Numbered from the whole stretch's first letter, positions 6,217 to 57,851 are shown. The stretch is 63,070 nucleotides of DNA, filler included, from 9 parts of 9 records of this genome joined end to end with filler, not necessarily neighbours in it; one strand, 5' to 3'. Notes: generated from the letters alone by a model not told the origin. Made by a program: numbers and translations.

Positions 6217-6316
6217 NNNNNNNNNNNNNNNNNNNNNNNNNNNNNNNNNNNNNNNNNNNNTTAATTAATTAANNNNNNNNNNNNNNNNNNNNNNNNNNNN
6301 NNNNNNNNNNNNNNNN
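6217..6316. other. artificial contig linker
   Basis: N44-TTAATTAATTAA-N44 (stops in all six frames). Confidence 0.99.
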
Positions 6317-13602: not shown

Positions 13603-13702
13603 NNNNNNNNNNNNNNNNNNNNNNNNNNNNNNNNNNNNNNNNNNNNTTAATTAATTAANNNNNNNNNNNNNNNNNNNNNNNNNNNNNNNNNNNNNNNNNN
13701 NN
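13603..13702. other. artificial contig linker
   Basis: N44-TTAATTAATTAA-N44. Confidence 0.99.
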
Positions 13703-20246: not shown

Positions 20247-20346
20247 NNNNNNNNNNNNNNNNNNNNNNNNNNNNNNNNNNNNNNNNNNNNTTAATTAATT
20301 AANNNNNNNNNNNNNNNNNNNNNNNNNNNNNNNNNNNNNNNNNNNN
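20247..20346. other. artificial contig linker
   Basis: N44-TTAATTAATTAA-N44. Confidence 0.99.
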
Positions 20347-30844: not shown

Positions 30845-30944
30845 NNNNNNNNNNNNNNNNNNNNNNNNNNNNNNNNNNNNNNNNNNNNTTAATTAATTAA
30901 NNNNNNNNNNNNNNNNNNNNNNNNNNNNNNNNNNNNNNNNNNNN
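30845..30944. other. artificial contig linker
   Basis: N44-TTAATTAATTAA-N44. Confidence 0.99.
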
Positions 30945-37881: not shown

Positions 37882-37981
37882 NNNNNNNNNNNNNNNNNNN
37901 NNNNNNNNNNNNNNNNNNNNNNNNNTTAATTAATTAANNNNNNNNNNNNNNNNNNNNNNNNNNNNNNNNNNNNNNNNNNNN
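37882..37981. other. artificial contig linker
   Basis: N44-TTAATTAATTAA-N44. Confidence 0.99.
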
Positions 37982-42988: not shown

Positions 42989-43088
42989 NNNNNNNNNNNN
43001 NNNNNNNNNNNNNNNNNNNNNNNNNNNNNNNNTTAATTAATTAANNNNNNNNNNNNNNNNNNNNNNNNNNNNNNNNNNNNNNNNNNNN
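42989..43088. other. artificial contig linker
   Basis: N44-TTAATTAATTAA-N44. Confidence 0.99.
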
Positions 43089-50189: not shown

Positions 50190-50289
50190 NNNNNNNNNNN
50201 NNNNNNNNNNNNNNNNNNNNNNNNNNNNNNNNNTTAATTAATTAANNNNNNNNNNNNNNNNNNNNNNNNNNNNNNNNNNNNNNNNNNNN
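50190..50289. other. artificial contig linker
   Basis: N44-TTAATTAATTAA-N44. Confidence 0.99.
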
Positions 50290-50290
50290 A

Positions 50291-52627
50291 AAATTGGGTG
50301 ATAACTGGTTGACATTTTTAAACAATTATGATGACAATCCTTTAATCAAAGACCGATTTAATTATGATGTCTTATATCACACAGATTTATCCAGAGATAT
50401 AGGTGAGTCTAATGGCATTGATTTGACACGCATCAATTGGGGAAACTATGACCTGGTTGTTATAGATGAATCTCATAATTTCAGAAATAATGATCCTCGA
50501 AAAGATAGAATCACCCGCTATCAAAAATTGCTCAATCACGTAATGAAAGCAGGTGTTAAAACAAAAGTGTTAATGCTTTCTGCCACTCCTGTGAACAACA
50601 GATTTAATGATCTTAAAAATCAAATAGCATTGGCTTACGAAGGCCATACCAGCGATATGGATGATAAACTGGACATCAGTAAATCCATTGATACGGTTTT
50701 GAAAAATTCACAGAAAATTTTTAACGAGTGGTCCAAAAGTCCTCTTGAAGAAAGAACGAGCCAACAATTATTAAAAAAACTGAATACCAATTTCGATTTC
50801 TTTAAACTGCTTGATAGTGTTACCATTGCCAGAAGCAGAAAGCATATCGAAAAATATTACAATATGGATCAAATCGGCAAATTCCCAAATCGACTTAAAC
50901 CCATTACACACCGGGCTGATATAACTGATTTGCAGGGCTTTATAGAAATTTCCGATTTGTACAGAGAACTTTCCAGATTAAATATGTCCATTTATTCACC
51001 CTTTGACTATATCCTCGATAGTAAAAAAGAGCTCTATAGTGATCTGTATGATACGGATATTAATGAGAATGTAAAACTAAAACAATCGCACCGGGAAAAG
51101 AGTTTGCAAACATTGATGCGCGTGAATCTGCTCAAAAGGCTTGAAAGCTCTGTGGACTCTTTTCGAATTACACTAACTAAATTTCTCAAAGGTATAGAAA
51201 CCACAATTAAGAAAATCGACGAGTTTCAGAATAATGGCAGGGCGTTTTATACTGATGCAGAACAAGTGGATGATTTGAATCTGGATACAGAAAGCGATGA
51301 CTGGTTCGATGACGAATTTAGTATTGGTGATAAAATAAAAATTAATCTGGCAGACATGAACACAACCGGCTGGAAAACAGACCTGATAGCCGATTATAAT
51401 GTGGCTAGTGAACTTTTAAAAGAGATGCAAAAGGTAACACCAGATCATGATAAAAAATTACAGGATTTAAAACAGTTTATTCAACATAAAATAGAAAAGC
51501 CAATTAACGAAAATAACAAGAAAATTCTGATTTTTAGCGCTTTCGCAGATACGGTCAATTACCTTTATGAAAATATAGCTCCGTACAATAAAAAAGTACA
51601 TAATCTCGAGACCGCCAAAGTGGTTGGTACAGACCAGAACAAATCAACTTTGAATATCCATCATTCTTTTAATAACATTCTGATTCATTTTTCCCCACGC
51701 TCTAAAGAACGAAAAGACAAAACAGCTCCTGAAATCGATATTCTTATTGCCACGGATTGTATTTCCGAAGGACAAAATTTACAGGATTGTGACACACTGA
51801 TTAATTATGATATTCACTGGAATCCTGTTCGTATTATACAACGATTTGGTAGAATTGACAGGATCGGCTCTCGTAACAAAGACATTCAGCTCATCAATTT
51901 TTGGCCGCAGATTTCTCTTGATGATTACATCAATCTTAAAAACAGGGTTGAGAGCAAGATGTACATGGTAGATGCCACGGCAACCGGTGAGGACAATGTT
52001 TTAACAAATGAATCTTCAGATTTGCTCTTTCGAAAAAAACAACTGGAAAAGTTACAGGAAGAGGTTGTGGATATTGAAGACATGGGATCCGGTGTATCCA
52101 TTACGGATTTGGGATTAAACGATTTTCGTATGGATTTGGTCAATTATATCAATCAGAATGGGAATCTGGAGAGTGTGCCAAATGGAATGCACGCTGTATG
52201 TGTTAAAGATGAAGAAATGGGCATACCTGCAGGTGTCATCTATGTACTGCGAAATATCAACAGCGATGTGAATATTGACAACACCAACCAGCTGCACCCG
52301 TTCTACCTGGTATATATTCAGGAAGATGGATCCGTTTTATCCAACCACCTGAATGTCAAAAACACGCTTGATATTCTACGAGCAATTTCCAGGGGAAAAG
52401 AGTCCCCCATCAAAGAAGTATATGAGCCTTTTAATGACGAGACTAATGATGGAAAAAAGATGGATAAATATTCGGCCCTGCTCAATAGCGCCATTGAATC
52501 CATTTTAAATGTCAAAGATGAAAAAGATGTGGACAGTCTCTTCTCTGCAGGTGGAACAACAGCGCTCTTGAATAACATAAAAGGCCTGGACGATTTTGAA
52601 TTAATTACTTTTATCGTGATAAAATAG
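50291..52627 (+). CDS. SNF2-related helicase (5' partial)
   Basis: VVIDESHNFRN, LSATPVNN, LKRLESS, ATDCISEGQNLQ, NYDIHWNPVRIIQRFGRIDRIGS. Confidence 0.93.
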   Translation, partial: KLGDNWLTFLNNYDDNPLIKDRFNYDVLYHTDLSRDIGESNGIDLTRINWGNYDLVVIDESHNFRNNDPRKDRITRYQKLLNHVMKAGVKTKVLMLSATPVNNRFNDLKNQIALAYEGHTSDMDDKLDISKSIDTVLKNSQKIFNEWSKSPLEERTSQQLLKKLNTNFDFFKLLDSVTIARSRKHIEKYYNMDQIGKFPNRLKPITHRADITDLQGFIEISDLYRELSRLNMSIYSPFDYILDSKKELYSDLYDTDINENVKLKQSHREKSLQTLMRVNLLKRLESSVDSFRITLTKFLKGIETTIKKIDEFQNNGRAFYTDAEQVDDLNLDTESDDWFDDEFSIGDKIKINLADMNTTGWKTDLIADYNVASELLKEMQKVTPDHDKKLQDLKQFIQHKIEKPINENNKKILIFSAFADTVNYLYENIAPYNKKVHNLETAKVVGTDQNKSTLNIHHSFNNILIHFSPRSKERKDKTAPEIDILIATDCISEGQNLQDCDTLINYDIHWNPVRIIQRFGRIDRIGSRNKDIQLINFWPQISLDDYINLKNRVESKMYMVDATATGEDNVLTNESSDLLFRKKQLEKLQEEVVDIEDMGSGVSITDLGLNDFRMDLVNYINQNGNLESVPNGMHAVCVKDEEMGIPAGVIYVLRNINSDVNIDNTNQLHPFYLVYIQEDGSVLSNHLNVKNTLDILRAISRGKESPIKEVYEPFNDETNDGKKMDKYSALLNSAIESILNVKDEKDVDSLFSAGGTTALLNNIKGLDDFELITFIVIK

Positions 52628-52641
52628 ACCACGAAAAAATT

Positions 52642-52719
52642 AACCACGAAACACACGAAAACCACGAAAAAAGAACAAAAACCAAAACAGTAAAACCCCT
52701 ATTCGTGCCTTTCGTGATT
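52642..52719. repeat. nonamer palindrome unit A
   Basis: AACCACGAAACACACGAAAACCACGAAA...TTCGTGCCTTTCGTGATT; extra ACCACGAAA at 52628. Confidence 0.9.
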
Positions 52720-52771
52720 CAGAATGGCGGGGCAAGGGATAAAGCCTGAATAAATGTCAAAGACCATAACA

Positions 52772-52840
52772 AACCACGAAAAGTGCGAAAAATGAATAAA
52801 AACCAAAATTGTAAAAGCGATGTTCGTGCATTTCGTGGTT
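52772..52840. repeat. nonamer palindrome unit B
   Basis: AACCACGAAAAGTGCGAAA...TTCGTGCATTTCGTGGTT. Confidence 0.9.
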
Positions 52841-52859
52841 CAAAACTAAAATACCCGAA

Positions 52860-53498
52860 ATGAACTGGCAACTACCCAAAACCGCACGTGTTAATAAATT
52901 CATAGCCAAAACCAGGTTTTATGACAGGGTGACACTAGGCGTCAAATTACAGAACGAGTTTATACATAAAATTCAAAAAATTACGTGGCTCTATAAATTG
53001 GCCGAAGAGACCATCAATATTTCCAAAACAGATAATGTGACCGAAATACAGATTTTTGTCATAGAGTTAAAAGAGCAGGTTATTCCGAAAAATGTATTGA
53101 AAGTAATTGATAAAACAATACCCTACCCAATTTTATATCAATTTGTTTATGAAAACAATCGTGCTTACGGGATGGCCCTGAAGGAAAAGAACAACATTAA
53201 AACGTACTATTTTTCCGAATGGGATGAAGAGGTGCGATTTGATTTTACCGGCATAAATTTGGAAAAAGTGTATCAAAAACTGATTCAGGCATTTATCCCC
53301 AACAAAGCCGGAAAAGAGAATAATTTTAATGATGTCGTAGCCCTGGACCGCCAAATAAAAACGGTACAAAAAGAGATGTTTGCACTGGAAAACAAAATCA
53401 GAAAAGAGAAACAGTTTAACCGCAAGGTAGAGATAAATAAAATTTTATTAGAAAAGAATAAAGAGCTTGAACGATTAACATCGAATATTACAAAATAG
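52860..53498 (+). CDS. DUF4391-domain protein
   Basis: LP..A.VNKFIAK..FY, ITWLYKLA, EIQIF, IDKTIPY, KEKQFNRKVEIN; typical position between helicase and type III mod. Confidence 0.85.
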   Translation: MNWQLPKTARVNKFIAKTRFYDRVTLGVKLQNEFIHKIQKITWLYKLAEETINISKTDNVTEIQIFVIELKEQVIPKNVLKVIDKTIPYPILYQFVYENNRAYGMALKEKNNIKTYYFSEWDEEVRFDFTGINLEKVYQKLIQAFIPNKAGKENNFNDVVALDRQIKTVQKEMFALENKIRKEKQFNRKVEINKILLEKNKELERLTSNITK

Positions 53499-53507
53499 GA
53501 AAAAATA

Positions 53508-53593
53508 AACCACGAATCACAGCAAATGCACGGAGAATTAAACCACGAAAAGCACGAACTAAAACGTTCGTGTCGTTCATGTTTTTTGTGGTT
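53508..53593. repeat. nonamer palindrome unit C (degenerate, doubled left arm)
   Basis: AACCACGAAT...; AACCACGAAAAGCACGAAC...GTTCGTGTCGTTCATGTTTTTTGTGGTT. Confidence 0.8.
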
Positions 53594-53610
53594 ACAAAAG
53601 AGGGATACCA

Positions 53611-55660
53611 ATGGAAAAGCTGGAGATGCACACCCCTGATTTAGTGAATAGAAACAAGGAACAACTTGCTAAACTATTCCCGCATATCATGACTGAAACT
53701 TGGGATAAAAACGGCAACATAAAAAAAGCAATCGATTTTGACCTGTTAAAGCAGGCTCTATCCGAAGATCTGGTGGAAGACGAAGACGAACGCTACCGCC
53801 TGGACTGGCCTGGTAAAAAAGCCTCGCTGTTAAAGGCCAATATGCCAATTAACAAAACATTAAGACCTGTAGTTGAAGAAAGTGTCCATTTTGAAAACGC
53901 AGAAAACCTTTTTATTGAAGGCGATAATTTTGAGGTATTGAAAATTCTGCAAGAGTCTTATCTTGGTAAAGTGAAGATGATCTATATTGATCCGCCTTAT
54001 AATACTGGTAATGATTTTATCTACAAAGATGATTTTAAAAAAGGTAATGGGGACTATGAAGAAGAAATCGGTGCGCGTGATGAAAACGGGAGCAAGCTCT
54101 TTAGAAATACCGATTCCAATGGCCGGTTTCATTCCGATTGGTTGAGTATGATGTATGAACGGCTTGTGATTGCCAGAGATTTGTTAAAAGAGGATGGGGT
54201 GATTTTTATTAGTATTGATGACAATGAAGTGGCTAATTTGAGAAAAATTTGTGATGAGGTTTTTGGGGAAGATAATTTTTTCTCTCAAATCATAATACGT
54301 GCTAATAGTAGAGGACAAACTTACAAACAGATTGCCAAAACTCATGAACATGTTTTAATATACACAATAAGTGAGGAAACGCAATTATCTGAATTAGAAA
54401 AGGATGAAATTAATAATGACTTGAATTATAATGATGAAATTGGAAATTTTAATATTCGTGAGTTAAGAAACCGCAATCCCAAATTTGGTAAACACAATCG
54501 ACCAAATTTGTTTTTTCCAATTTTTATTAATTCTAATATTAAAGATAAAGATGGATTCTCACCCCTTTCATTAACAGAATCTGAAAAATATACTATTAAA
54601 GTCGAGCCTATCAATTCTATGGGCAAGGAAAGTTGTTGGAGATGGGGGAAAAAATAAGTGCTTAAATAATATTTCTGAATATACCCTGGAAAGTAATTTA
54701 ATAGCTAAACAGAAAGGTGATGGAAATTATGGTATTTATGAAAAATACCGTAAAACCACCTATAAACCAAAATCAATATGGATGGATAATTCATTTTTGA
54801 CAGAAACAGGGACAGTAGAGGTGAAAAAAATTGGATTCCAGGATGAATTTGATTTTCCAAAGCCAGTTTCACTAATAAAAATGTTAACAACATTAGGTAG
54901 TAATATTAACTCAGACAACATTATTGTAGATTTCTTTTCAGGCTCCGCAACGACAGCCCACGCCGTCATGCAACTCAACGCTGAAGACGGTGGCAACCGT
55001 AAATTCATCATGGTGCAGCTGCCGGAAAAAACAGATGAAAAATCCGAAGCCTATAAGGCTGGCTATAAGACCATCGCGGACATTGGTAAAGAACGTATCC
55101 GTCGTGCGGGGAATAAGATTAAACACGAGTTTCTTGCCACATATCAATCAAAACTTGAACAATTAAAAGCCTATAATCAACTGAAACTCACTGATGATCA
55201 GAAAAATGAGAAACAAGAACTTTTTAAAAAAATAGAACATATAAAAAATCTGGATATTGGTTTTCGGGTTTATAAAACAGATTCGAGTAATATGAAAGAT
55301 GTTTATTATCACCCGACAGAGCTCGATCAAGAGCAACTCTTTATGATAGAGAGCAATATTAAAGAAGACAGGACTGCTGAGGATCTGTTGACCCAGGTTA
55401 TTCTTGATTTGGGATTGGAATTATCCCTGCCCATTGAGAAAAAAGAGTTTGCAGGAAATACCGTGTTTATTGTGCAGCACAACGCCCTTGTCGCTTGTTT
55501 CGATAAAGATATCAATTTTGACATTGTTGATGATATTGCCGACATAAAACCCTTCAAGGTCGTTTTTCGTGATGCCTGTTTTAAGGATGATAAAGACAGG
55601 ATTAATGTGGAAGAGCGATTTAAACGGCTTTCGCCTGAAACGGTTATTACGGTGATCTAA
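53611..55660 (+). CDS. mod: type III restriction-modification methyltransferase (frameshift at G5A6 near 54650)
   Basis: LDWPGK, IEGDN, IYIDPPYNTG, HSDWLSMMYERL; second half FPKP, DFFSGSATT, RKFIMVQL. Confidence 0.93.
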
Positions 55661-55683
55661 GGCAAGTCACAGAACAAATAATA

Positions 55684-55760
55684 AACCACGAAAAACACGA
55701 AAAGCACGAAAAAAGAACAAGGACCAAAAAGTAAAAATCCTGTTCGTGTCTTTCGTGGTT
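55684..55760. repeat. nonamer palindrome unit D
   Basis: AACCACGAAAAACACGAAAAGCACGAAA...TTCGTGTCTTTCGTGGTT. Confidence 0.92.
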
Positions 55761-55819
55761 TAAAATGGTGGGGTATGGAGTAATAAAGACTGAGAAAAAT
55801 CAAAGATTATAAAAAATTT

Positions 55820-55873
55820 AATCATAAAGCGTGAAAAATGTTCTTTTTCGTGTCTTTCGTGCCTTTCGTGGTT
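55820..55873. repeat. nonamer palindrome unit E (left arm eroded)
   Basis: Intact right arm TTTCGTGTCTTTCGTGCCTTTCGTGGTT. Confidence 0.85.
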
Positions 55874-55931
55874 CAATTTGGTGGGGTATGGGATGATAAA
55901 GATTGGATAAATGTCAGAGTATAAGATAATA

Positions 55932-56010
55932 AACCACGAAAAACACTAAAAACACGAAAAATGAAAAAGAGAAAAAAGCCATGTTCGTGTCTTTCGTGCC
56001 TTTCGTGGTT
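55932..56010. repeat. nonamer palindrome unit F
   Basis: AACCACGAAAAACACTAAAAACACGAAA...TTCGTGTCTTTCGTGCCTTTCGTGGTT. Confidence 0.92.
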
Positions 56011-56026
56011 TAAGAAGGAGGGGAAA

Positions 56027-56404
56027 ATGTCAGATATTATCTACAAAGAAGAGAGTTATGAAATTCAGGGAGCCATATTTGAGGTTTATAAAGAGATGGG
56101 CAGTGGTTTTCTAGAGGCGGTTTATCAGGAATGTTTGGAAAAAGAAATGAAACTGCAACACATTCCATTTATATCGCAACCGATATTGGATTTGCGGTAT
56201 AAAGGTGAAAAACTAGACCAAACATACAAGCCGGATCTGATTTGTTATAATGAAATTATCGTTGAATTAAAAGCAGTCAGAACAATAGCTCCTGAACATA
56301 AAGCTCAACTGATAAACTATTTAAAAGCAACAAATTTAAAATTGGGGATCCTTGTTAATTTTGGTGCACACCCAAAAGCAGAGATCACAAGATTGGTTCG
56401 ATGA
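56027..56404 (+). CDS. GxxExxY protein (PD-(D/E)XK-like nuclease family), 125 aa
   Basis: GSGFLEAVY, KPDL..IIVELKAV, AQLINYLKAT, GILVNFG; RBS AAGGAGGGG then ATG 56027. Confidence 0.95.
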   Translation: MSDIIYKEESYEIQGAIFEVYKEMGSGFLEAVYQECLEKEMKLQHIPFISQPILDLRYKGEKLDQTYKPDLICYNEIIVELKAVRTIAPEHKAQLINYLKATNLKLGILVNFGAHPKAEITRLVR

Positions 56405-56426
56405 ACCTCTAATCACTGAAAAAAAC

Positions 56427-56505
56427 AACCACCAACAACACGAAAAGCACGAAAAAAGAAAAGGATAAAAAAGCCATGTTCGTGTTTTTCGTGCCTTTCG
56501 TGGTT
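56427..56505. repeat. nonamer palindrome unit G
   Basis: AACCACCAACAACACGAAAAGCACGAAA...TTCGTGTTTTTCGTGCCTTTCGTGGTT. Confidence 0.92.
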
Positions 56506-56522
56506 AAATATAAAGGCATAAC

Positions 56523-57751
56523 ATGAAATTAAAATTTAAAAACCAGCAATACCAGACTGATGCAACCATGGCTGTTGTCAATTGCCTTGCCGGTCAAACC
56601 AAAGGATTTCGCAAAGAACTTGTCGGTCGGACTGGCTTGATAACCGATGAGATTTTTTCCAATAAAAAGCTGGAACTTGAAAAAGCCGATATTCTCAAAA
56701 ATGTCCAGGAAGTACAAAGAGAACAGGGACTTAAGACCAGTGACAGACTAGATAACCTTAATTTCGCCATTGAAATGGAAACTGGCACAGGTAAGACGTA
56801 TGTCTATACCAAAACCATGTACGAGCTCTATAAAGAATATGGCTGGAGCAAGTTTATTATCATGGTGCCGTCTGTGGCTATTCGTGAGGGTGTGCACAAA
56901 TCACTGCAGATTACAGCAGACCACTTTCAGGAAATTTACGGCAAAAAAATTCGCTTTTTCATTTATAACACCAAAAATAAATCCAATCTGGTCAATATAA
57001 AGAGCTTTGCCAATACGGCGAATATTGAAGTCATCATCATGAACTATCAGGCCTTTGCCACACGCAGCAAAGAGTCGCGAAAAATTTATCAAAAGCTTGA
57101 TGTGATACAATCTGAAAAACCTATAGATATTATCAAACGAGCACGACCCATTTTAATCATCGATGAACCACAGCGTTTTGGCGATAAAGCCGAATCGCTG
57201 TTGCCTGAATTTAATCCGCTTTTTATTATACTTTACTCAGCCACCCATAAAGAAGAGTACAATAAAGCCACCCATAAAAAAAGGTATAATAAAATTTATC
57301 GGCTTGATGCTATTGATGCCTTTAACCAAAAACTGGTCAAAAAAATCAATGTCAGAGGAATTGAAGTGGTTGGTAACAGCGGTACAAACAGTTATCTTTT
57401 TTTGGACCGGATAAATATAGGCACGAATCACTTTCCCACCGCGAATATTGAATTTGAAGTTAGACAAAAGTCAGGTATTAAAAAGGTTATACGAACATTA
57501 CACGAAAAAGACGATTTATATCAGCTTTCAAATGAATTAGAGGAGTACAAAGACTTTATTGTCAAAGAAATAAACGGTTTAAAGAACAGGGTCACGTTCA
57601 CAAATGGTATTAAAATATGTGTCGGGCAAAGTATCGGCGAGGTGGATGCTGAGCATGTCAGACGTATCCAAATCAGAGAAGCAATAAGATCTCATCTGGA
57701 AAAAGAGAAATTTATGTACAAAAAGGGGATAAAAGTTCTGTCGCTCTTTTT
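56523..57751 (+). CDS. res: type III restriction endonuclease subunit (3' partial)
   Basis: MKLKF..QQYQ, IEMETGTGKTYVY, VPSVAIREGV, IIDEPQ, YSATH, GIKVLSLF. Confidence 0.95.
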
Positions 57752-57851
57752 NNNNNNNNNNNNNNNNNNNNNNNNNNNNNNNNNNNNNNNNNNNNTTAAT
57801 TAATTAANNNNNNNNNNNNNNNNNNNNNNNNNNNNNNNNNNNNNNNNNNNN
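57752..57851. other. artificial contig linker
   Basis: N44-TTAATTAATTAA-N44. Confidence 0.99.

Follow-up and report, generated by a model that had tools for sequence, protein, structure and literature searches.

The DNA analysed here, a stretch of 63,070 nucleotides termed the window, holds a type III restriction operon in which seven hairpin units, A to G, occupy all four intergenic spacers, and in which a small gene of the GxxExxY family lies between two of these hairpins. The units are built of the word CACGAAA, or its complement TTTCGTG, recurring with a 9-base period as inverted arrays. We put at roughly 0.55 the probability that they are local members of a hairpin-arm family spread over many phyla which, together with the GxxExxY gene, makes up a compact insertion cassette in operon spacers. 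The comparisons below show joint inheritance of arms and gene, as a single unit, in different phyla, with the arm word shifting with the protein clade. We hold it probable, with good confidence, that the cassette is a selfish insertion element, and its insertion into operon spacers is likely.

An original prediction, made from the sequence of the window alone, had placed seven hairpin units in the four spacers, and the counts bear this out. A two-unit array, CACGAAANNCACGAAA with up to two mismatches, matched 19 times between 52645 and 56502, every match falling within the four spacers; 0.65 matches would be expected by chance, and none of 100 shuffles scored as high as 19. The cores CACGAA and TTCGTG were counted 17 and 19 times on the operon contig, against 0–4 times on each of the other eight contigs of the window. 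The details given for the unit ends were likewise correct by sequence, unit A ending in GTGATT and unit E having an eroded left arm. The further remark that other contigs have no unit is correct but of little weight: the nine contigs of the window range from 35 to 58% GC and, judged on that range, may come from different source organisms. Units A, B, C, D, F and G were scored as hairpins on both strands (z −2.4 to −8.4 relative to 100 mononucleotide shuffles, the plus-strand values being −4.2 to −6.9). Unit E, where the right arm stands alone, gave no hairpin signal (z −0.3 on the plus strand and +1.0 on the minus strand).

The hairpin family and its GxxExxY genes

At least 125 occurrences of a three-unit array were counted in species genomes, which span many bacterial phyla; among the matches listed, the carriers belong to Verrucomicrobiota, Planctomycetota, Acidobacteriota, Gamma- and Betaproteobacteria, Spirochaetia, Cloacimonadota and Chloroflexota. 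Counts per genome, here and below, are from genomes other than the window's own; genomes are labelled G001 and so on, loci L001 and so on, and G002 is Rhodocyclus purpureus. Single genomes held 21–210 matches to the two-unit array, with 0–4 for a reversed-pattern control. Arms consist of 2–5 tandem 9-base units, and the loops between them measured 13–387 nt in 80 pairs, with one outlier of 1707 nt. Across 81 non-identical hairpins with 113 inter-word spacers, the words were kept far better than the spacer bases; the two variable spacer bases pair in 45 and 66 of the 113, compared with 29.0 and 50.7 in shuffles. The template N-C-R-C-R-R-A-W-N fits 64 of 84 typed loci, compared with 5.9% of random 6-mers of the same composition. 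Because the loci are kin, this fit speaks for slow change mainly at purine positions and not for independent convergence.

Six of 125 array loci, among the matches listed, hold a GxxExxY relative, each about 25 nt or less from an arm. At L026, L040 and L262 the gene is enclosed by a left arm and a right arm, and in the window, G162 and L075 it is flanked by two complete hairpins rather than lying within a loop. Inverted periodic arms were seen by eye at all nine genes matching the family profile PF13366 in two genomes and at all 18 in one order. For a wider comparison we scanned metagenomes, taking the best 80 of 580 confirmed relatives, of which 75 had flanks long enough for the test. A strict test required, within 150-nt flanks, a 6-mer periodic at 7–11 nt whose reverse complement was periodic too. 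It was positive at 32 of 75 GxxExxY genes and at 3 of 67 control open reading frames (ORFs) from the same loci (Fisher p 4e-8), which is the enrichment of inverted repeats near these genes that the original prediction had anticipated. A looser test gave a median best inverted-repeat score of 16.5 for the genes versus 11.0 for the controls (p 1e-9). Gene orientation relative to the arms was dropped as a test, since an inverted repeat reads alike on either strand.

Arm words go with protein clades. CACGAAA-armed proteins from four phyla are 58–63% identical to the window protein, and paralogues from the same genomes with other arms are 38–41% identical to it. The arm labels are clustered on a quick tree of 90 proteins: they need 42 changes, compared with a mean of 55.8 after shuffling, and none of 200 shuffles was as low. 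A well-supported clade of 23 proteins around that of the window has 16 CACGAAA and three CGCGAAA arms. Three genomes with a CGCAGAG-armed gene contain 10–32 CGCAGA arrays and no CACGAAA arrays, and two gene-less genomes show the reverse.

A CGCAGAG-armed cassette was observed in the same spacer of three genomes, G026, G064 and G032 (L250, L251 and L253), between an upstream gene whose C-terminus is conserved and a 4Fe-4S-type gene downstream. Its parts run in the order left arm, right arm, gene, second right arm, an order that allows two alternative pairings.

Cassettes are present or absent at orthologous sites, and the ORFs flanking the 80 best relatives share the orientation of the GxxExxY gene in 109 of 135 cases (p 3e-13). 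The proposal that the hairpins act as boundary marks when defence genes are exchanged found no support in this survey: restriction-modification neighbours were found at just 8 of the 80 loci, mostly those of the closest relatives of the window gene. Other neighbours belong to capsule, sugar, haem, tRNA-synthetase and other operons, for the most part housekeeping and capsule. Since the neighbours are mostly non-defence operons, the cassette is not tied to defence.

Hairpins in genomes lacking the gene

We sampled 151 genomes of the order holding G001, calling hairpin-rich those with at least five array matches. An array was present in 34 genomes, 21 were hairpin-rich, 30 had PF13366, and nine were both rich and in possession of the gene. 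PF13366 therefore occurs in 9 of 21 hairpin-rich genomes compared with 21 of 130 others (odds ratio 3.9, p 0.008, shared ancestry uncorrected); the same test without the unpublished G047 gives 20 of 129 others and p 0.007. No PF13366 match was found in G001, G002, G005, G165 or G170. Methylotuvimicrobium buryatense 5G is a further carrier of hairpins that lacks the gene. Four of the first five carriers examined were without a CACGAAA-armed gene, and at least four array-laden carriers have GxxExxY genes with other arm words only.

An orthologous spacer in one genus allowed a closer look. G005 and G165 have a hairpin there at the same position, the flanks being 84% identical and the loops unrelated. 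All seven cores are perfect in G165, though both genomes are without PF13366, and such perfect cores imply that the arms were kept, or regained at the same spot, without the gene. Elsewhere the same spacer holds another repeat in two genomes and a longer, armless, unrelated sequence in one, and it is short and empty in five. Gene-less hairpins clearly persist and multiply without the GxxExxY nuclease.

Some hairpins multiplied inside larger elements resembling miniature inverted-repeat transposable elements (MITEs). In G137, which has no PF13366 match, the CACGAAA hairpin forms the core of a MITE-like element, about 190 nt long and seen at 12 loci (L290–L301), which has outer inverted ends and TTA/TAA flanks. 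The arms in G093 (L305–L320) are closely bordered on the outside by longer inverted ends, which begin ACTGATG and have TA on either side; parts of this hairpin element recur at 93–99% identity, and nested in the loops is a second repeat of about 84 nt, with about 20 copies that are 95–99% identical. Rhodocyclus purpureus has about 20 copies (L150–L169, L012, L149) with asymmetric outer ends, and one end of an element provides an AAGAGG ribosome site 5–9 nt before the following host start codon. The bursts in these three genomes are ordinary-looking MITEs with the hairpin as core. Many of the hairpin copies in G137 were located at contig ends; such hairpins break assemblies.

Several points weigh against treating arms and gene as one insertion cassette. 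The control ORFs of the flank tests were called mechanically, and the protein tree was a quick one with many open forks, on which crude arm labels were scored. The window units have no consistent fold strand, A, D, F and G folding better on the minus strand and B and C on the plus strand. Half or more of the spacer bases are mismatched, which is far from a clean stem, and the conservation of the cores is partly built in because the search pattern demanded perfect cores. Twelve of the 21 hairpin-rich genomes are without PF13366, among them those with the two highest counts (183 and 179) and others with 99 and 94, and the gene-bearing G162 has just 11 array matches, eight of them beside the gene. 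Neither a target-site duplication nor an exact end was definable for the arms-only forms, and no duplication was seen at the G005/G165 site. Finally, the 13 hairpin loops of G005 gave no similar pairs by BLAST, two being alike by eye, and this diversity is not as expected from copy-and-paste of a master element.

These results also bear on the model that the original prediction favoured, a counterpart of the repetitive extragenic palindromes (REPs) and their REP-associated tyrosine transposases (RAYTs). In its strict form the GxxExxY nuclease would nick and mobilise the hairpins, and solo hairpins would be non-autonomous and dependent on the nuclease. The gene has flanking arms of its own type, and solo arrays of the same genome are of that type too, which agrees with such a model. 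So do the enrichment of the gene in hairpin-rich genomes and the contrast between G093, a gene-bearing genome with its 93–99% identical element parts, and G005, whose query element has no near-identical copy within G005. Yet that enrichment is uncorrected for shared ancestry, and the richest genomes are among the 12 without PF13366; the intact cores at the orthologous site belong to a gene-less genome; the bursts in G137, G093 and G002 have outer terminal repeats of their own, with flanking duplications typical of ordinary transposases in the first two; and four-helix-bundle genes, described below, are packaged alike. We therefore regard the strict analogue as unlikely. What stands of the earlier proposal is the pairing of the gene with its own type of arms. 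Equal abundance of hairpins in genomes lacking the gene had been named in advance as a result that would count against it, and this was seen in part: over half of the rich genomes are gene-less, and the gene is nonetheless enriched in rich genomes relative to the others.

What the loops contain was relevant to a second alternative. Among 13 long loops only a GxxExxY remnant (L102) and a 79-aa ORF (L023) look real. The latter, in Planctomycetaceae, lies at 2552–2788 on the minus strand within a 293-nt CACGAAA hairpin loop and is unrelated to GxxExxY. We also inspected six loci with genes of the four-helix-bundle family PF05635 (L135–L140, from G001, G002, G004 and G005). Four lie between inverted arrays of 7–10-base units, L136 has direct repeats and L135 no clear arms, and the array words are unrelated to CACGAAA. 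One could hold that the hairpin family is older and independent, with a function or a means of moving of its own, and that the nuclease gene, as its parasite or cargo, homes into matching arms or is captured between them. Hairpins that far outnumber the genes and abound without them, arms conserved in gene-less genomes, hypervariable loops with other nested repeats, one foreign ORF and one GxxExxY remnant, and a second gene family in the same packaging would all suit this idea. It is less easily squared with the gene's position between two complete hairpins, not in a loop, in the window, G162 and L075, or with cassettes in genomes nearly without other arrays (none in G154, 11 matches in G162), nor was any one hairpin found both empty and filled. 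We consider it quite improbable.

A third possibility is that the units are immobile host regulatory sites, either arrays for a global DNA-binding protein or intercistronic RNA hairpins for mRNA processing or stability. The far better conservation of words than of spacer bases could be so explained, as could the fixed distance of the right arms from start codons in the window and the ribosome site that follows the arm in 20 Rhodocyclus copies. Paired three-repeat sites of this kind are described for Geobacter metallireducens in the available text of one report, and the same word arms one GxxExxY gene in G003 (PMC2700814). Four features make regulatory sites very improbable as the general explanation: the patchy distribution, with a match in 34 of 151 genomes of one order; presence and absence at orthologous positions; bursts of near-identical, assembly-breaking copies; and the occurrence of the same word in many phyla. 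We know of no regulator that is common to carriers of the array word.

The spacers of the operon and the GxxExxY protein

The units are given here without strand, and the modules between them are on the plus strand. Unit A (52642–52719; −13.5 kcal/mol on the plus and −23.1 kcal/mol on the minus strand) has a left arm of three CACGAAA words, an A-rich loop and a right arm of two words with the GTGATT end. It is followed by a module (52720–52771) with a ribosome-site-like GGCGGGG and then an apparent vestige of the first GxxExxY codons; this module can be aligned to the segments that follow D, E and F. The hairpin of unit B occupies 52772–52840. Unit C (53508–53593) combines a hairpin (53541–53593) with a degenerate outer left half-arm (53508–53535). 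Beyond the mod gene, the hairpin of unit D (55684–55760; z −6.9 and −7.0) is followed by a module (55761–55843) that contains a ribosome-site-like GGTGGGG, a degraded gene start and then the eroded left arm of E, leaving unit E itself (55844–55873) as a right arm of three words. The module after E (55874–55931) has GGTGGGG followed by 10 bases that match the GxxExxY gene start. The hairpin of unit F (55932–56010; z −6.8 and −8.4) is directly upstream of the GxxExxY ribosome site, and that of unit G (56427–56505) has a loop resembling the F loop.

At all four start codons a right arm ends a short way upstream: 19 nt from B to DUF4391, 17 nt from C to mod, 16 nt from F to GxxExxY and 17 nt from G to res. 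Statements on start-codon spacing apply to the window and the named loci; a survey of ORFs around 42 hairpins was dropped, spurious ORFs being called in GC-rich loci. One module recurs after A, D and E; the ribosome-site-like GGNGGGG stretch is kept in each copy, and the 9–10-base match to the first GxxExxY codons is present after A and E and degraded after D. On this sequence likeness it is suggestive, not proven, that the three modules are decayed cassettes. One loop motif is common to F and G and another to A and B. The window units have no outer terminal repeats past the arms, and no target duplication was seen. At a permissive threshold Rfam gave no rRNA match in 52500–56600. Five Rfam look-alikes of microRNA precursors were rejected as hairpin noise, scoring 22–30 bits where the gathering scores are 80–100.

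Under the cassette reading, the window would hold one intact copy, consisting of hairpin F, the ribosome site, the GxxExxY gene and hairpin G; the modules after A, D and E would be its decayed counterparts, and the remaining units gene-less hairpins. The cassette may be transcribed with its host operon, with the arms pairing as a long interrupted stem that would insulate the insert in the transcript, much as in 23S rRNA intervening sequences that bear an ORF, whose stems are cut by RNase III. The downstream gene would retain its ribosome site, because the right arm ends 16–19 nt before the next start codon. We offer this account tentatively, putting it somewhat below even odds. We are more hesitant about the suggestion that the nuclease acts on arms of its own type and so aids the spread of the cassette; as the mover of its own cassette the nuclease is the evident candidate, a role to which we would assign the same doubtful standing. 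Gene-less hairpins are independent of the nuclease: in its absence they last under constraint and, in some genomes, multiply as passengers of MITE-like elements.

A broader scheme can be drawn, which as a whole we think rather unlikely. In it GxxExxY would be the dedicated nuclease of mobile cassettes across bacteria, reading arrays of 7-base words and cutting to move or copy the cassette; the arms would fold in the transcript and make the insert harmless; gene-less hairpins would be surviving non-autonomous offspring taken up by other transposons; and four-helix-bundle cassettes, including those of 23S rRNA, would be a sister system.

The GxxExxY gene (56027–56404, plus strand) encodes a protein of 125 aa whose only family matches are TIGR04256 and PF13366, both above the family cut-offs (143.8 bits with a cut-off of 35, and 147.9 with a cut-off of 22). 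In 10 sequences E30, D70, E80 and K82 are invariant, corresponding to a PD-(D/E)XK core, and H91, Q94 and Y98 are likewise invariant beside these catalytic-core residues; a Q-x-x-x-Y motif is typical of RecB-like nucleases. An AlphaFold2 model with a predicted local distance difference test score of 95 had its best fold matches to Cas4 SSO0001 (E-value 1.6e-4), lambda exonuclease and LHK-Exo. As modelled, the protein is a minimal nuclease fold of the RecB/Cas4-like PD-(D/E)XK type. A sequence search of the PDB gave no match at E-values up to 1. GxxExxY (PF13366) is a large family; in the available text of a 2012 survey of the superfamily it is entered with the role 'Unknown' and with multiple transfers (PMC3424549).

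The closest relative of the window protein among the best 80 of 580, at 74% identity, is encoded at L170 (1–4872). This locus has a similar helicase-mod operon with the cassette in a different spacer, that between helicase and mod, and no DUF4391 gene was seen in the part available. Degenerate GxxExxY genes were observed at L129 and L131 of G004 and elsewhere, with shifted or read-through C-termini, internal stops or reduction to fragments, and their sequences fit frequent gene decay within arms. At four loci the left arm is in frame with the gene and has an ATG immediately beyond its outer side: L170 (2490–2540), L171 (895–945), L174 (600–650) and L186 (270–320). If that ATG is used, the period of nine bases, or three codons, would give the four proteins an N-terminus of His-Glu-Lys/Arg repeats.

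The contig bearing the hairpins (50290–57751) is 7.5 kb long with 36% GC. The contigs of the window are joined by eight linkers (N44, TTAATTAATTAA, N44) at 6217–6316, 13603–13702, 20247–20346, 30845–30944, 37882–37981, 42989–43088, 50190–50289 and 57752–57851. All genes of the operon are on the plus strand. First comes an HKD/Snf2-type helicase gene (50294–52627), with its 5' end cut by the contig start, which matches PADLOC C3a139 'HKD+Snf2' (E-value 1e-110) and contains a Helicase_C domain. The DUF4391 gene (52860–53498; PF14335, E-value 4.9e-41) is followed by the type III mod gene (53611–55660), which is in two ORFs (53611–54657 and 54782–55660) owing to a frame change at a G5A6 run near 54645–54655. 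Both halves match one PADLOC model, MTase_III PDLC03634, at positions 2–303 and 373–619 (E-values 2e-120 and 2e-86). Over the break, at 54640–54790, the methyltransferase carries on in the second frame, an observation absent from the original prediction; the frame change could be phase variation, decay or a homopolymer sequencing error. After the GxxExxY gene comes the type III res gene (56523–57751; PADLOC REase_III, E-value 1.4e-120; NF012027), with its 3' end cut by the contig end. The adjoining mod and res genes identify a type III restriction-modification operon, with mod interrupted by a frame change.

Comparison with known systems

In the literature searched we found no published account that pairs GxxExxY genes with hairpin arms. 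If gene and arms are one mobile unit, a single explanation would serve for the GxxExxY family, for intergenic tandem-repeat hairpins and for ORF-bearing 23S rRNA inserts, and small genes would have a transposase-free route for settling within operons. Hairpins of this kind can also be mistaken for regulatory sites. The Geobacter metallireducens sites are a case for comparison: the available text describes 21 paired sites on opposite strands, each of three tandem repeats and at varying distances from its partner, and raises the possibility of a global regulator not yet identified (PMC2700814). They resemble our arms in having three tandem units of about nine bases, opposite strands, variable spacing and intergenic position, and their word is that of the arms of the G003 GxxExxY gene. 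They differ in being described, in that text, as protein-binding sites of one genome, with no link to a nuclease or to mobility.

MITEs, like these hairpins, are short, non-coding, bounded by inverted repeats and of high copy number. Elements of that type, with internal sequence common to the copies, have the hairpin at their core in G137, G093 and G002, and the flanks resemble TWA in G137 and TA in G093. The likeness does not extend to the window and G005, where outer terminal repeats and recognisable target duplications are lacking, and where loops are unique in G005 and share some motifs in the window.

REP populations co-occur with a RAYT enzyme gene in the genome. Both systems comprise dispersed intergenic palindromes in high copy and an enzyme gene in low copy flanked by its own type of repeat, and in both, as far as the available descriptions of REPs go, repeat types correspond to enzyme clades. 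The enzymes differ, RAYT being a Y1 HUH transposase and GxxExxY having a predicted PD-(D/E)XK fold with RecB/Cas4-like matches. Moreover, the GxxExxY gene is often inside a hairpin, and these hairpins are abundant in genomes without the enzyme. In the available text on REPs, these are single stems of 8–9 bp with a GTAG or CGTC tag at one end, the CGTC-tagged ones having loops of 4–5 nt (PMC3733652), whereas the arms here have 2–5 tandem 9-base units. Some of our copies begin with CGTC, and identity with CGTC-tagged REPs was rejected on these grounds, REPs as so described being single short stems and not arrays.

The intervening sequences of 23S rRNA offer the remaining comparison. That of Coxiella burnetii, according to the available text, is 428 nt long, carries the S23p ORF and is excised by RNase III (PMC4990558). 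As described there, such inserts resemble the cassette in several ways: inverted repeats able to form a long stem surround a small ORF with no assigned role, the insert sits in a transcribed unit without destroying it, and it has been called selfish and horizontally acquired, with an ORF prone to decay. The units described here, by contrast, lie between protein genes and not in rRNA helices, and their ORF has a nuclease fold where that of the rRNA inserts is a four-helix bundle, although four-helix-bundle genes outside rRNA are packaged in the same way.

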